From positions 992,001-1,056,000 of the forward strand of contig OX597826.1 of NCBI GenBank assembly GCA_951406725.2: a stretch of 64,000 nucleotides of DNA, read 5' to 3'. The translations under genes were made by a program, and so were the position numbers. The notes beneath the pieces were generated by a model, which searched no databases, was not told the origin of the DNA, and was given only the letters and a program-made list of their open reading frames with translations. This DNA is from Octopus vulgaris. Its lineage: Eukaryota. Position 1 is the stretch's first letter. Every line of letters starts with the position of its first letter. Below are positions 23,501 through 56,341 of the stretch, piece by piece.

Positions 23501-26500
23501 GGCTTTGAATAAAAAAAAAATACAGGATGATCAGTTAATTATGATTTTATTCACCATGTTCCACTCTCAGATTCACACACATTGCAGCGATCCTTCAGTT
23601 TTCTAAGCCCTGTAAAATAACTCGGAAGGCTGGGCCTTCAACCAGGCCTTTTGTGACATCCTTAAAGCCAGGAACTTTTCAGCATTATTTACATTATTTA
23701 CATTTGACAGATATTTGTCCTCATCTTGTTTGTTGTTAACACAATGTTTTGGCTGATGTACACTCCAGCCTTCATCGGGTGTCTTGGGGAAATTTCGAAC
23801 CTAGGTTCTCATTCCTAAGGTATTTTTCGTTGTTGTTGTTGGTATTATTATTATTCAGGTCACTGCCTGGAATTGAACTCGGAATCTTGGAGATAGTAGC
23901 CTGTGCTCTTAACCACTACACCATATGTAGTGGTTAATAATAATAACATCGAAAAATAGCTTAGGAATGAGAACCCAGGTTCAAAATTTCCCTAAGACAC
24001 CTGATGAAGGCTGGAAGGTATATCAGCCGAAACATTGTGTTAACAACAAACAAGATGAGGACAAATATCTGTCAAATATAAATAATTCCTCATCTCTTAA
24101 ATATAGAACTGCAACCTCATATATATGTGAGTATATACACGATGGGCTTCATTCTGTTTCTATTTACCAAATCCACTCACAAGGCTTTGGTTGGCCCTAG
24201 ACTATGGCCCAGGACTATGGCAGAAGGTGCATGCAGTGGGACTGAACTGAAGACCACATGGTTGGGAAGCAACGCTTGCACCTCTGCGTGTGTGTATGTG
24301 TGCACATGTGTATATTTGCATTCTTTAATGTTGACACTGGTTGACCAATTACAGACAGTCTTCTATAAAAGAATGTCCATCCACTGAACTGTCAAAGCTT
24401 CAAAGAACAAAGGGGAATATTATCTTTCATGGGCGCAGGAGTGGCTGTGTGGTGAGTAGCTTGCTTACCAACCACATGGTTCTGGGTTCAGTCCCACTGC
24501 ATGGCACCTTGGGCAAGTGTCTTCTACTATAGCCTCAGGCCGACCAAAGCCTTGTCAGTGGATTTGGTAGACAGAAACTGAAACAAGTCCATCGTATATA
24601 TGTATATGTATATATATATAAATATATATATGTGCGTGTGTGTCTGTGTTTGTCCCCTCCCAACATCGCTTGACAACCGATGCTGGTGTGTTTACATCCC
24701 CGTAACTTAGCAGTTCAGCAAAAGAGACTGATAGAATAAGTACTAGGCTTACAAAGAATAAGTCCTTGGGTCGATTTATTCAACTAAAAGTGGTGCTCCA
24801 GCATGGCCGCAGTCAAATGACTGAAACAAGTAAAAGAGTAAAGAGTTTCTTGGAAAATAGGTGAGCAGTGGCAACAAGAAGAGCATCCAATCTAAAAAAC
24901 ACAAGCTTCAAGAGAGATTGTCTGACCAATGCAAGCACAGAAAAGTGGACATTAAAAAGATGATTATAATGTATTGTGTCACAACAGTTTCATATGTGAT
25001 GACCAGTGGAATAAAGTACCCTGCTTGAAAATAAATAAAGGTATTTAACCAGAGAATATAGCAGCCAACCCATGTTAGCATGGATAAAAGCAAACACAGA
25101 AATGGTGGTGGTGCTGACAGCAATGGCACAGTGGTTAGGGCAGTGGACTTGCGGTCATAAGAACATGGTTTCGATTCCCAGACCGGGCATTGTGAGTGTT
25201 TATTGAGCAAAAACACCTAAACTCCACGAGGCTCCGGCGGGTGGTGGTGGTGAACCCCGCTGTACTCTTTCACCATAACTTTCTCTCACTCTTTCTTCAT
25301 ACTTCTGCCGCAAAGCAGAGGAACCAAGGTGTAACCCACTATGGTGTGGTAAACTTTCAGACCCTAGTCTACATTGCGAATCCTCTGTACCCCAGAATGG
25401 TTCAGCTCTCCACCCGTTAAAAAGCCACCGTTTATGGAATGAGGATAACAACGTAACTTTCGCGCCCATGCAACCGCCAGTCTACCGTGTGTGGTGGGTG
25501 GGTCTTCAAGTTGCCACACGCATTCTTAGTAGCTTAGAGTAGGCTCGAATTAGAGATTATTCTTTGTGGCCAATGGTGTGAGTCCCGATTGGAGGAGGAG
25601 GAGGAGGAAGAGGAGGTGGAGGAGAAGAAGAAGAAGAAGAAGAAGAAGCAGCAGCAGATCAAATTTAATACTTACATAAATATGGCTGACACGACAACTT
25701 TACCCGAACTAGACGACCAAAGCTTATCTGGTTGTGGTCCTGGAGTCTACAAGGAATCAGTTGATAAATTGAATACAAATAATATCAGTCTAAGAACTGA
25801 ATGGTTGTGATGTCTACCTAATTCATTCTTATCAACTTCAATATACTTTTGTGAGCAAGTTTCTCTTCAAATACACTGTTTTGTGGCAATTAATTTTGAA
25901 AATCATGAGGAATTTAGTGAAATTATATTCTCGTTATTAAGCTGGTGTTTAAATTTAAAACAAATTCAAATAAGAGTGTTATAGTTTGCTTGAAGCATTG
26001 TAGTACAGAAGAAGAAAAATAAACGAAAAAGGAAATGAGAAAATCTTCTAAAAATGCAGAGAGGAAAATTGAAAAACCTTTCTACAATTCAGGTGAAGGA
26101 TAGAAGTAATATAGATCACTTAGATAGATCATTATATCGTGCTTAAGCAAACCCATCAAGCCAAGCAAAATCACAGTTGTGGCAGATACCAGTCTCATGT
26201 AAATTGGCACCCGTGCCAGTGGCATGTAAAAGCACCCGGGTGTCACACAAATGGCACCCATGCCAATGACATGTAAAAGCACCCATTACACTCATGGAGT
26301 GGTTGGCATTAGGAAGAGCATCCAGCCATAGAAAACCATGCCAAATCAGACTTGAGTCTGGTGCTGTCTTCCAGTATGCCAGCCCTGGTCAAACCATCCA
26401 TTGTCCATGCCGGCATGGACAATGGATTGGATGGACGATGGATTGGATGGACAATGGATTGGATGGACGATGGAGTTGATGGCATGACTTCTATGGCTGA

Positions 26501-29500
26501 ATGCCCTTCTCAATACCACAGATGTCCTTCCCAATGCTAAGGATGCCTTTCCTTAATGCCAAAAGAGTTAAATTTCACATTCCTCAGTCAAACTTCTTCC
26601 TTAAGTAAAGCAAGAAAAAATAAACAAACAAAGACAACGATTACCTGTTGCTCTTCTTGCTCTTCAGCAAGTTCAAATTTTTTAGAATCACCTGTTTGCT
26701 TTTTATAATTTTCTATTGCTGCCTTCAGTTGGAACAAGTCCACTACAGAAAAAAAATTCAATAAATCCAATTAAAAAAAAATTAAATTACAAAAGATACA
26801 AAATTAAATAAAATTTAATAACAAAGATTTACAAATATGTGTCTTGAAGTTATTTCTCTCTTTAATTTATATTTAACTAGCAGTATAGCCCGGCGTTGCT
26901 CAGGTTCGTTTTCTTTCCGACCCTTTAGAATTGGAATTTTTGAAAAGTAAAAATTTTGCATTATGTAGCTTGTTATTCTCTTTAAGTGAACATTTTTCTG
27001 GTTGAAATACACTGAAAAATGGCAACACAGCAGTCAAAAAATTGTAAAAAATAGAGATTTTCATAGAAAAAAAGCACCTTTTTGATGTAAATAATTTTTG
27101 GTCTTAACATGGTCCAATTTGAATTTTTTCCTCTACGGAAGGAAGAGCAAGCGTTCTTCTATTATACTCTCAATTTTGGTCAACTTGTGCCACAGGGTCT
27201 CGGAGGAGATAGTGGTAGTTGAAGGCTACCAAACACACACAGACAACTTCAGCTTTATATATAAAAATTTACATTAGAGACTTAGATAGAGTAAAGCATC
27301 ATGTCCAGTGCCCTGCAGTCTTCATGGAAAAACTGATCAATTACCTTTGTTACATAAATCTTATCCAAGATGCTGCAAATAGCATTCAAACACAAAAAAC
27401 AAAAGCCACTTACAACGACCAAATCGTTCCCGTTCCATTTGAATAATTTTCTGTTTTTCTTTAGTAACATTTGACAAAGAACCCCACTTTTTGATTGCTC
27501 TGAAATATTTAAACAAAATTTTATTTAGTTATTGTTATTATTATTATTATTATTGGGTGAGAGTAGTGTGCATGCAATCAAAGTGACACTGGGGTACAAA
27601 TATACAAAACCCAATATACCCATCATGACTACCCATCTGATGAGGGTACACCAGGCACATGCATCACAACCAAGTGTGCACAACATGCTGACTTCATATC
27701 AAGTTAAACAGTGCATGCCCTTGCAGACTGGGTCAAGTTAGAATTTTCTTCAGGTTGAGTAGCCCATCCCACTCATAAGGTCCTTAAATAAGGTTTGTTA
27801 AAGGATGGTGAACCCATGAATCCAGAGGTGAATTATTCAAACTCCAAAGAATTCCTCTCAACACATGGCTATGATGCTCCCCCACTACTTCTGCTCATGA
27901 TCAGAGATGCACATATCGTCAGCCACTAAGGGACATGCTCAAATGGTTATGGTCAAACAACTGACAAACAAATCTGTGGTATTGAGCAGAATATTTGCCG
28001 TAGCTCATCTTTTATACCAAGACAAAACAATGTACATGATAACACTTCCAATCAGTTAAGACATGAGAGTCACTGCCTGGTAATACATCCGGGCATTTTT
28101 TTTTTTTTTTTATTATTATTAAGAAGAAGAAGAAGAAGAAGAAGAAGAAGAAGAAGAAGAAGAAGAAGAAGAAGAAGAAGAAGAAGAAGAAGAAGAAGAA
28201 GAAGAAGAAGAAGAAGAAGAAGAAGAAGAAGAAGAAGAAGAAGAAGAAGAAGAAGAAGAAGAAGAAGAAGAAGAAGAAGAAGAAGAAGAAGAAGAAGAAG
28301 AAGAAGAAGAAGAAGAAGAAGAAGAAGAAGAAGAAGAAGAAGAAGAAGAAGAAGAAGAAGAAGAAGAAGAAGAAGAAGAAGAAGAAGAAGAAGAAGAAGA
28401 AGAAGAAGAAGAAGAAGAAGAAGAAGAAGAAGAAGAAGAAGAAGAAGAAGAAGAAGAAGAAGAAGAAGAAGAAGAAGAAGAAGAAGAAGAAGAAGAAGAA
28501 GGACGGTAAGATGACAGAATCGTTAGCATGCTGGACAAAATGCTTAGTGGTATTTCACCTGTCGCTACATTCTGAGTTCAAATTCCGCCAAGGTCAACTT
28601 TGTTTTTCATCCTTTCAGGGTTGATAAATTAACTACCAGTGAAACACTGGGGTCGATGTAGTCCCCTCCCCTAAAAAATTTCAGGCCTTGTACCTACAGC
28701 AGAACGTATTATTATTTTTATTATTATTATTGAGTGAAAGAGCAGTGCATGCCATCAAAGTGACGCTGGGGTAAAATATACAAAGCCCAGTCTACCCATC
28801 ATGACCACCCGTCTGGTAAGTGCAGACCTGGCACATGCATCACAACCATATTATTATTATTATTATTATTATTATTATTATATGTACCAGCACAGACACA
28901 CTACCTAAAGTGTATTAAAAAAGTGACAGAGTATTTCATATATGGTGATTTAGTGAGTCAGTGGCTGGGTAGACAGTGTTACTTGAGGAAGATTTAACTG
29001 CTATTTTTAGCAGGTGTGTTTCTTCTCTGTAAGCTTCATTATTCCTGCTGTCATAATTTAGTCTAACTAAACAGTAATGTGTGTGCATGTGTATTTGAAT
29101 GTGCTTGCATGTGTGTGTGTGTGTGTGTGTGTATGGCTGTGAGTGCGATTGAGTATGCACTTATGTGATCGTGTTGCTGTCTAAATACACGCGTGTACAA
29201 GAGAGTGTGGATGTTTGTGTATGTTTCTCTGTGCATGATTATTTGTCTGTGTGTATGTGTATGAGTGTGTGTGTGTATGCATATGTGTATTTATCTCTGT
29301 GTGTGTATGTAATCAGGTATGATCTCATGCAATTAATTTGCAGAATAAATTTATAAAACGTTTAAAAAAAACAAAAAACAGATAGCAAAGAGGTAACTTA
29401 CAGCTTCTCAACATCAGACCTTAGAAACATTAAAATCGGCATTTCTCTTCCATATGGACTTCTTCGAGTGTACTTTGGTAATTGTGTTAAGTCACTGGGA

Positions 29501-56150: not shown

Positions 56151-56341
56151 TGTTGTGTCTGGGGAGAGTCATTTTCTTTTTGTGCCTTACAATTTAAAAC
56201 ACTCAATAGTCTTGACGATTGAAAAGGTTGCAAGACGCAACGAAAATTTTAGGAAAATGAAAATAAGAAATGGAAATTTTACCGGTGAGTATGTTAAATT
56301 ATAAGGCACAAAAAGAAAATTACTCTCCCCAGACACAACAG
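56151..56341. mobile_element. Foldback pLTR-like cassette with putative U3-A8 hammerhead remnant (related fragments 35230-35400 and ~22015-22065)
   Basis: Arms TGTTGTGTCTGGGGAGAGT..GTGCCTTA / TAAGGCAC..ACTCTCCCCAGACACAACA; TTGAAAA-G-GTTGC(AAGAC)GCAAC-GAAA at 56219-56245. Confidence 0.55.

Follow-up and report, generated by a model that had tools for sequence, protein, structure and literature searches.

Probable Penelope-like insertion scars with hammerhead motifs in Octopus vulgaris, including a tRNA-headed family likely mobilised in trans

Hammerhead motifs and a Penelope-like element in the window

The window, a stretch of 64,000 nucleotides of Octopus vulgaris DNA (GCA_951406725.2, contig OX597826.1, positions 992,001 to 1,056,000 of the forward strand), carries seven separate hammerhead-shaped motifs, most of which are likely the ordinary leftover ends of Penelope-like elements (PLEs). 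One of the motifs lies in the 3' end of a PLE, five lie in cassettes with inverted arms, and one stands by itself (Table 1).

Table 1. Hammerhead motifs, cassettes and related features of the window
Feature	Position	Strand	Description
Isolated copy of cassette 6 extension	22013..22074	+	87%
Cassette 1, near full-length family 1 copy	23693..23927	-	head, AAT/AAC linker, body, decayed hammerhead, short tailless 3' end
Decayed hammerhead, left arm of cassette 1	23738..23783	-	U4, G12 and stem III palindrome altered
tRNA-type head	23858..23927	-	box A at 23923, box B 45 nt on; family 5' boundary ~23927-23930
Cassette 1 inverted partner	23928..24111	+	5'-truncated, with 3' tail; cassette arms 148 bp, 91% identity
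Hammerhead 1	23996..24041	+	minimal PLE type, extra A after A9, stem I 5 bp, stem II 6 bp; predicted cut after 24036; stem III palindrome broken at 24034
Optional 25-nt tail between both family 1 3' ends	24087..24111	+	right (+) arm only
Second copy of cassette 6 family	35271..35395	-	within CA/GT repeat, no inverted arm, 83% identical
Cassette 2, inside TA repeat	42779..43226	+	arms 42779-42912 and 43044-43177 (134 bp, 98.5% identity); candidate tail 43178-43226
Hammerhead 2	42965..43009	+	core intact, stem I 6 bp, stem II 5 bp, perfect 8-nt stem III palindrome; predicted cut after 43003
Cassette 3	44642..45262	+	arms ~44682-44762 and ~45168-45260 (89 bp, 93% identity, plus 12-nt gap); spacer 400 nt; candidate tail left
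Hammerhead 3, left-arm copy	44722..44761	-	12 nt absent, still fits descriptor via another stem I (5 bp)
Hammerhead 3	45171..45208	+	U3-A8 core variant, stem I 3 bp, stem II 4 bp, stem III palindrome broken
Endonuclease-bearing PLE, 5'-truncated	49152..51460	-	between TA repeats
Hammerhead 4, in PLE 3' end	49250..49287	-	extra A after A9, U at core position 6, 4-nt palindrome intact; predicted cut 103 nt from PLE 3' end
PLE frame, 440 residues, unbroken	50141..51460	-	C-terminal part of RT, thumb, C-x4-C-x2-C linker, GIY-YIG-type nuclease motifs
Cassette 5	51526..52627	+	arms 51526-51623 and 52488-52585 (100% identity over 98 bp; whole inverted match 103 bp, 99%); 860-nt AT-rich non-coding spacer; candidate tail right
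Hammerhead 5	52465..52555	+	core intact, stem I 6 bp, long stem II; predicted cut after 52549
Hammerhead 7	54636..54682	-	core intact, stem I 6 bp, stem II 4 bp; no inverted arm
Cassette 6	56089..56346	+	arms 56145-56205 and 56286-56346 (61 bp, 92% identity); extension 56089-56144, left only
Hammerhead 6	56218..56250	+	U3-A8 core, extra base, stem II 5 bp, stem I down to 1 bp

Both strands of the microsatellite-masked window were scanned with a hammerhead descriptor and compared with 30 dinucleotide shuffles. The strict descriptor, requiring the strict core, a stem I of at least 3 bp and a stem II of at least 4 bp, returned four matches (23996+, 42965+, 52465+ and 54682-) against a shuffle mean of 0.07 and a maximum of 1. 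With a relaxed core there were seven matches in the same masked window (shuffle mean 0.47, maximum 2), the additional loci being 45171+, 49287..49250- and 44761..44722-, the last of which is the left arm of cassette 3. Dropping the stem I requirement gave five matches against a shuffle mean of 1.3, and only this setting recovered 56218-56250; motif 6, taken alone, is a weak case within chance expectation. The initial annotation had described six type I hammerheads: five of its six motifs pass, the copy at 56219 fails for want of stem I, and the seventh motif, at 54682 on the minus strand, had been overlooked. The seven loci are mutually unrelated, as it had stated, self-BLAST finding no similarity among them.

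The G10.1-C11.1 closing pair is G-C at 6 of 7 loci and G-U in motif 5. The stem III palindrome is intact in motifs 2, 4 and 6, retained with G-U pairs in motif 5, and interrupted by one mismatch in motifs 1, 3 and 7. Of 201 Rfam rows, 150 are listed, and motif 7 is the sole hammerhead in these (HH9, 26 bits, E 0.031, under the gathering score of 52); none of the six motifs described earlier appears in them, and no hammerhead match there reaches the gathering score. These subthreshold scores and the weakness of motif 6 would suit chance matches in AT-rich repeat DNA, a reading of negligible probability given the excess of strict matches over the shuffles, the core and stem III restored by the majority letters of the cassette 1 family (see below), and a motif layout that agrees with the minimal-hammerhead consensus of PMC4209133. 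For motifs 1, 2, 5 and 7, the shuffle comparison refutes a chance origin.

The PLE is real: its unbroken frame has 919 relatives, the best 50-56% identical, which carry PF00078 and in some cases also PF01541, while a Pfam scan of the frame itself returned 0 families. Its cysteine linker makes it Neptune-like in appearance, though such a linker is also present in Nematis (PMC8557442). The U at core position 6 of its hammerhead is not found in the available part of PMC4209133. The proposed link between hammerheads and PLEs is borne out by this motif and by the insertion marks described below, but not the role of this copy as mobiliser of the cassettes: self-BLAST within the window found no DNA common to it and any cassette, so it does not stand as their demonstrated partner.

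Inverted arms and the signature of insertion

Inverted partial arms were verified in all five cassettes (1, 2, 3, 5 and 6), with the 3' ends pointing outward in each. TA repeats adjoin cassettes 2, 3, 5 and 6 and the PLE, and cassette 1 has an ATT-rich junction in their place; motif 7 has no repeat flank and none of the insertion marks. No target-site duplication of at least 8 bp was found outside simple repeats at the 8 sites checked, cassette 1 included, and a profile of 120 related PLE proteins detected no ORF remnants in the cassettes. Self-BLAST found no direct tandem copies of any hammerhead motif within the window, and neither of its two tandem arrays (0/2) contains a hammerhead match.

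For cassettes 2, 3, 5 and 6, whose tails are candidates drawn from the window sequence, truncated PLE ends or non-autonomous families could about equally well account for the insertions. In the cassette 6 family, the copy at 35271-35395 has a stem I of 3 bp but an A at G12, whereas 56218-56250 has lost stem I, so that each copy is damaged at a position of its own.

The arms are genuine, but the shared foldback architecture proposed for them is not a fixed structure of the element, since the inverted arm of the cassette 1 family begins at many different points, and it is best read as a PLE insertion scar. PLE insertions are known to show an inverted truncated copy, a one-sided tail and a microsatellite bias (PMC8557442), and PLE reverse transcription to involve extension on both strands, a preference for ATT, two start sites and an uncut RNA template (PMC11167929).

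A tRNA-headed family ending in a minimal hammerhead

Of the cassette families, that of cassette 1 (family 1) was surveyed in four public runs, in which contigs at 80% likeness were aligned to 501 bases. The runs yielded 45,837, 53,597, 34,341 and 5,436 family 1 contigs, the three DNA-type runs accounting for 34,341-53,597 each with unrelated flanks, although contig depth is not copy number. Family 1 occurs in run X9, for which an RNA origin is a guess only. Cassette 1 belongs to a very high-copy, dispersed, non-coding family of ~250-270 nt. Its members begin sharply at the 5' end with a tRNA-type head whose A and B boxes are perfect; a linker and a minimal hammerhead follow, with two alternative 3' ends 25 nt apart, and the hammerhead with these PLE-type ends makes up the 3' part.

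Perfect A and B boxes at the 45-nt offset occur twice in the window against a shuffle mean of 0.14, while allowing one mismatch gives 10 matches across the cassettes and the PLE. Neither ARAGORN nor Rfam called a tRNA at the cassette 1 head, and folding of the window copy gave no cloverleaf (z 0.11); read position by position, the majority letters at 23891, 23893 and 23902 give an anticodon-type stem of 3 bp and its loop of 7 nt.

Majority letters keep the family 1 hammerhead intact. At 24034, the letter with which the stem III palindrome is whole again makes up 87, 59, 79 and 86% of depth in the four runs, and the left-arm letter that restores U4 makes up 94-99%. The free core position 7 is variable in 18-23%. 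The left-arm G12 is restored in only 11-23% of depth, probably because such copies align to the right arm.

Joints linking the 5' end of the head (23927) to varied positions between 23978 and 24082 on the opposite arm make up 8 among the 15 of 467 joints listed. Among the rows listed, loose ends with low-agreement flanks occur at two places: 23683-23690, where the three DNA-type runs give 154-381 contigs per row, and 24111, with 166-233 contigs. Beyond the rows listed, the survey counted a further 1,995 loose-end rows and 14 variant rows. In run X1, depth falls from ~670,000 at 23920 to ~1,500 at 23928. Four among the 32 records listed bridge head and body with at least 31 letters on each side, and with 24-26 letter differences from the window they come from other loci.

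This recurrence of the head-body join argues against taking all five cassettes as 5'-truncated ends of autonomous PLEs, with the family 1 head as an internal segment of the PLE 3' region or a common SINE-head chimera. Single and opposite-strand minimal hammerheads have been interpreted as truncated PLEs (PMC4209133), and head depth is lower than body depth in family 1; the boundary at 23927-23930 is nevertheless sharp and falls at about tRNA position 1-4, and a loose end at 23927 is absent among the 24 loose-end rows listed, which leaves this account unlikely.

A head of this standard type would also suit an ordinary tRNA-SINE mobilised by a LINE, in which a captured PLE end makes the hammerhead a passenger and the foldbacks secondary; SINEs commonly have simple-repeat 3' ends, and LINE fragments are present in the window. 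Inverted truncated partners joined at the 5' end with many breakpoints, together with an optional non-repeat tail, are however marks of PLEs, and the missing target duplication at cassette 1 is unexpected as well, so we regard this origin as very improbable.

The initial annotation favoured retrozyme-like elements, which in the strict form would make the cassettes monomers from tandem non-LTR retrozymes spread through circular RNA after double self-cleavage. Dispersed monomers do occur in retrozyme families, their share ranging from 0 to 1, and these families are argued to derive from PLEs as non-autonomous elements; the shape of motifs 2 and 7 is canonical, and the Schistosoma element Sm-alpha is tRNA-derived, hammerhead-bearing and frequently tandem. 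The published definition of a non-LTR retrozyme asks for two or more direct units in succession, every one of them carrying a hammerhead (Li, Clavereau and Pollet 2026, 10.64898/2026.07.22.740005), and the cassettes fall outside it since they are not tandem. The window lacks both direct motif tandems and hammerhead-bearing arrays, head-to-tail joints of family 1 are absent among the 15 of 467 listed, and the family begins at the tRNA head instead of the cut site, an arrangement not expected if the template were cleaved or circular. A retrozyme origin is accordingly improbable.

Proposed mobilisation by Penelope-like elements and its implications

Taken together, the five insertions with an outward inverted arm are likely scars of PLE retrotransposition, the family of cassette 1 being tRNA-headed and likely PLE-mobilised in trans. 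In the first step, a PLE protein would nick both strands of AT-rich DNA and prime reverse transcription from each, starting at either of two sites close to the RNA's 3' end. The two cDNAs would then halt early at different points and be joined, giving the product observed, a main copy and an inverted 5'-truncated copy with a tail on one side only. Copies subsequently decay, as seen in the window, while the majority letters of family 1 keep the hammerhead. Family 1 itself would be transcribed by Pol III, through the A and B boxes that it carries internally, into an RNA ~250-270 nt long and probably copied uncut, since the head, which lies upstream of the cut site, is retained in its copies. Its hammerhead is likely part of a 3' structure recognised by the PLE protein, and would cut only slowly, as a dimer. 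We lean, by a narrow balance, towards family 1 being a SINE of Penelope, in which a Pol III-driven, tRNA-headed RNA of 250 nt ending in a minimal hammerhead hijacks the PLE RT-endonuclease and reaches very high copy.

Minimal hammerheads were described in the pseudo-LTRs of metazoan PLEs by Cervera and de la Pena (2014, PMC4209133), in an alignment that includes the molluscs Lottia and Crassostrea. As in the window, they show type I topology, an extra base after A9, the U3-A8 variant and a palindromic stem III, with many unrelated families per genome, mostly single motifs, and opposite-strand pairs 100-700 bp apart. The initial annotation suggested that family diversity and core variants may be undescribed for this lineage; within-genome diversity, the U3-A8 core and the extra base after A9 are already reported there. 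The available part of the supplement has no octopus row and no mention of 'tRNA'. Neptune-like endonuclease-bearing PLEs (Craig et al. 2021, PMC8557442; Frangieh et al. 2024, PMC11167929) share 5' truncation, an inverted truncated copy at the 5' end, a one-sided tail, TA/ATT targets and the RT-nuclease cysteine linker, whereas family 1 has no ORF, starts with a tRNA-type head and carries a tail of 25 nt, below the published 30-40.

Among non-autonomous elements, Sm-alpha and Sj-alpha of Schistosoma (PMC6765202, PMC2770079) resemble family 1 in being tRNA-derived, SINE-like, apparently transcribed by Pol III, equipped with a type I hammerhead and very high in copy. Sm-alpha, however, is often tandem and released by cleavage, while family 1 has a minimal PLE-type motif, occurs as single copies with inverted partners, and retains its head, which lies upstream of the cut site. 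Animal non-LTR retrozymes (Cervera and de la Pena 2020, PMC7229834; 10.64898/2026.07.22.740005) are likewise non-coding, with a type I hammerhead, a 170-400 nt scale and a proposed PLE dependence, but are defined by direct tandem units and circular RNA, in contrast to the single motifs with inverted arms seen here. MRC1 of Chlamydomonas, a non-autonomous PLE, offers a precedent for ORF-less PLE-type insertions; elements of its type share 3' sequence with a known autonomous partner, and a tRNA head is not mentioned in the available part of the source (PMC8557442).

The general picture of diverse PLE hammerheads is thus already published and, apart from family 1, what was first noted here mostly repeats known PLE biology; the new part is the cassette 1 family. 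If the proposed reading is true, PLEs would join the short list of SINE partners, and family 1 would be the smallest natural substrate of PLE retrotransposition. A tRNA-headed SINE mobilised by PLEs would define the minimal RNA signal needed by the PLE protein, and the many family 1 copies would chart the two RT start sites and the inversion breakpoints at scale. Family 1 also offers a test of what the PLE hammerhead is for: with the head kept upstream of the cut site and the motif kept by the majority, it points to a role in recognition or processing more than in obligatory cleavage.

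Hammerhead motifs and their chance level

A type I hammerhead descriptor was run on the masked window and on 30 shuffles of it. In its strict form it returned four matches (23996+, 42965+, 52465+ and 54682-), where the shuffles averaged 0.07. The relaxed form returned seven, namely the strict set together with 45171+, 49250- and 44761-, where they averaged 0.47. Five of the six motifs that the initial annotation had read as type I folds fit the descriptor. The sixth, motif 6, fell short of it, its stem I being only 1 bp long and the motif by itself lying within chance; the second copy of the cassette 6 family, at 35271-35395, possesses stem I and carries a different defect. 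A match at 28617 from an initial loose descriptor was spurious and was dropped.

Motif 7, overlooked in that annotation, is the sole hammerhead, at sub-threshold score, among the 150 of 201 Rfam matches listed for the window, and none of the other six motifs appears there. In the whole-window Rfam output, microRNA models matching microsatellites predominate, and local Rfam scans of cassettes 1 and 5, two of the five short insertions with inverted arms, returned neither hammerhead nor tRNA. Motif 7 has a canonical shape and carries no inverted arm, TA flank or target duplication. Folded as isolated RNAs, motifs 1, 3 and 4 are predicted to hold stems I and II at populations of 0.84-1.00, with lower values (0.28-0.73) for motifs 2, 5 and 7. 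Compared within the window, the seven loci have no common sequence, in agreement with the earlier reading of mutually unrelated motifs. We conclude that the hammerhead motifs are genuine.

The U at core position 6 of motif 4 occurs in a Penelope-like element (PLE) copy with an unbroken frame and could be a natural variant or a mutation private to this copy. PLE hammerhead variants, which may already include one at position 6, were reportedly treated by Lunse et al. 2017. In cassette 3, the left-arm motif (44722-44761, minus strand) is missing 12 nt that the right-arm hammerhead (45171-45208, plus strand) contains, yet satisfies the descriptor through another, longer stem I, and the right arm has two GAAA boxes 11 nt apart; the difference between the arms reflects either chance following a deletion or two sub-variants.

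Features of the window (window coordinates)
Feature	Position	Strand	Description
Motif 1	23996	+	extra base after A9
Motif 2	42965	+	
Motif 3	45171	+	U3-A8 core
Motif 4	49250	-	extra base after A9; U at core position 6
Motif 5	52465	+	
Motif 6	56219	+	extra base after A9; U3-A8 core
Motif 7	54636-54682	-	
Cassette 1, left arm	23693-23927	-	
Cassette 1, right arm	23928-24111	+	
PLE copy	49152-51460	-	
Mariner transposon, near-complete	45562-46853		40-bp terminal inverted repeats; 297-residue frame matching Pfam Transposase_1 and HTH_48; frameshift near end
LINE 3' fragment, presumably RTE-like	43915-44640	-	204-residue frame, best relatives 55-65% identical
Two homogeneous tandem arrays	2648-6270, 58425-62960		units 47/94 bp and 274 bp, 94-99% identical
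Decayed 650-bp element	35480-36130		long inverted ends (67%), no hammerhead match; probably a non-autonomous DNA transposon
Short element bounded by inverted ends	23476-23687		hosts cassette 1 in its right end; presumably a mariner-type MITE
Second tRNA-type head	55150-55232	-	perfect A and B boxes, 45-nt offset; belongs to another repeat
Two degenerate direct copies, ~147 bp (68%)	52039-52322		inside cassette 5 spacer

Inverted arms and the Penelope-like element

The window has 38% GC, abundant TA microsatellites and a CpG observed/expected ratio of 0.48. Its retroelement proteins, with relatives in scattered animals, mark it as animal, and the neighbouring SINEs look octopus-like. The PLE proposed for it is present as a 5'-truncated copy with TA repeats on either side and an unbroken 440-residue frame that comprises the end of the reverse transcriptase, a C-x4-C-x2-C linker and GIY-YIG-type motifs. 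Its protein has 919 relatives, with top identities of 50-56%; a Pfam scan of the fragment returned no family. Motif 4 lies 103 nt from the 3' end of this copy, which, in comparison within the window, has no DNA in common with any cassette. Neither tblastn nor a 120-protein PLE profile detected ORF remnants in the cassettes, searches that might have missed frames in decay or PLEs of other clades. The PLE and cassette 5, 65 bases apart (51461-51526) within one TA repeat and without sequence in common, are two independent insertions into a single microsatellite.

Inverted arms were confirmed in all five cassettes, 91-99% identical and with their 3' ends outward. According to the text available from Craig et al. 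2021 (PMC8557442), PLE insertions are biased toward microsatellites and highly 5'-truncated; often a truncated copy in inverted orientation stands at the 5' end, and the 30-40 bp tail often occurs at one end only. The available part of Frangieh et al. 2024 (PMC11167929) describes a PLE protein that cuts and extends both strands, with ATT preferred, and that starts reverse transcription of an uncut RNA template at two sites, one on each side of the tail. The cassettes fit this published insertion pattern, and PLE-type priming on two strands followed by joining would produce them. The foldback might instead be a functional RNA design; this was rejected as unlikely, since in a whole-cassette transcript the arms are predicted to abolish hammerhead stems I and II in four of the five cassettes. 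At the centre of cassette 1, positions 23909-23937 form a perfect 12-bp hairpin, and the right arm opens on a head fragment in inverted orientation before skipping to the AAT linker, an arrangement that suggests a template switch at microhomology.

Beyond the window, at least half of the words of cassette 5 occur in 20 of the 24 listed runs (8 studies), a count that represents neither copy number nor expression, and no RNA run holding it is on record among those 24. A pattern scan gave 0 loci in prokaryote genomes and, on the first pass, 0 in metagenomes; three metagenome loci from a later scan were chance, matching only across the pattern's own 22-24 letters.

A high-copy repeat with a tRNA-type head

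Cassette 1 is a copy of family 1, a ~250-nt repeat composed of a tRNA-type head (23858-23927), a linker, a body and the hammerhead, whose anatomy, majority letters, recurring inverted partners and two 3' ends were seen directly. Using 23640-24140 as query at 80% likeness, 45,837, 53,597, 34,341 and 5,436 contigs aligned in four runs; the 32 records listed range from 6 to 74 in depth, and summed depth reaches millions. Contig depth is not copy number, and from contig counts and depth together we infer a very large family.

The majority letter restores the stem III palindrome at 24034 in 87, 59, 79 and 86% of depth and the left-arm U4 in 94-99%, while the free core position 7 varies in 18-23%. 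Contrary to this repair pattern, the left-arm G12 is restored in just 11-23% of depth, and at position 24033 a change that breaks the palindrome accounts for 7-25%, the pattern expected from CpG decay. The join between head and body recurs at other loci in four of the 32 listed records, each differing by 24-26 letters. The 5' boundary is sharp: in one run, depth falls from ~670,000 at 23920 to ~1,500 at 23928, a point corresponding roughly to tRNA position 1-4. Eight of the 15 joints listed (467 in total) lead from 23927 to varied points on the opposite arm; inverted partners with variable truncation thus recur family-wide. None of these 15 is head-to-tail. The two 3' ends lie near 24086 (left arm 23683-23690) and at 24109-24111, and the 25-nt tail is present in the window on the right arm only. 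The final right-end bases of the short element hosting cassette 1 are absent in the window and appear as loose ends among family 1 contigs.

The left arm runs on into a head whose perfect A and B boxes are offset by 45 nt, the spacing of T8 and G53 in a standard tRNA. The window contains two such perfect pairs, where 100 shuffles averaged 0.14; the second one, at 55222, belongs to a different repeat. Three majority-letter changes form an anticodon-type stem and loop. ARAGORN, Rfam and folding found no tRNA in the decayed window copy of the head, and its six matches to phage records, at E 8, included none to tRNA.

Relation to known hammerhead elements

The family diversity and core variants, which the initial annotation thought might be undescribed for this lineage, are of a kind already known: the available text of Cervera and de la Pena 2014 (PMC4209133) records heterogeneous minimal hammerheads by the thousand in single genomes, together with the U3-A8 core, the extra base, a palindromic stem III, low dimer activity, and opposite-strand hammerhead pairs from truncated PLEs. 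Nor is high density new, given ~38,500 candidates in Schistosoma mansoni (PMC2770079, in part). The accessible part of Perreault et al. 2011 (PMC3088659) describes U3-A8 and a slow A6C variant, and the term A6U is absent from it. The label "retrozyme-like" fails: in the text available, non-LTR retrozymes, proposed in July 2026 as non-autonomous PLE derivatives, are tandem by definition (10.64898/2026.07.22.740005; PMC7229834). The cassettes resemble PLE ends and are not retrozymes; the 47-bp and 274-bp tandem arrays, containing no hammerhead, were likewise rejected as such.

Sm-alpha, a SINE-like repeat of tRNA origin that carries a hammerhead, is the nearest precedent for family 1 (PMC6765202, PMC2770079, both in part); the available portions of PMC8967140, PMC6962438, PMC4758252, PMC10886601 and PMC6685494 hold nothing closer. 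For O. vulgaris, a 2026 repeat survey (PMC13282606) counts 31 PLE families as recently active and leaves 893 SINE families unclassified, with no mention of ribozymes in the text available, and Ohshima and Okada 1994, as cited by others, described three octopus SINEs. In the literature listings searched we found no report of octopus PLE hammerheads or of a tRNA-headed hammerhead SINE with PLE insertion marks; family 1 may already be catalogued as a plain SINE, whether in Repbase, Dfam, the library of the 2026 survey or Ohshima and Okada 1994.

The general interpretation in the initial annotation, that ribozyme-bearing elements are mobilised by PLE, is for the most part known biology. Cassettes 2, 3, 5 and 6 and motif 7 may be truncated ends of autonomous elements or non-autonomous families. 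Family 1 would be transcribed by Pol III, its uncut RNA copied and the repeat mobilised in trans by a PLE, and cassette 1 probably reveals a PLE-mobilised tRNA-SINE bearing a hammerhead.
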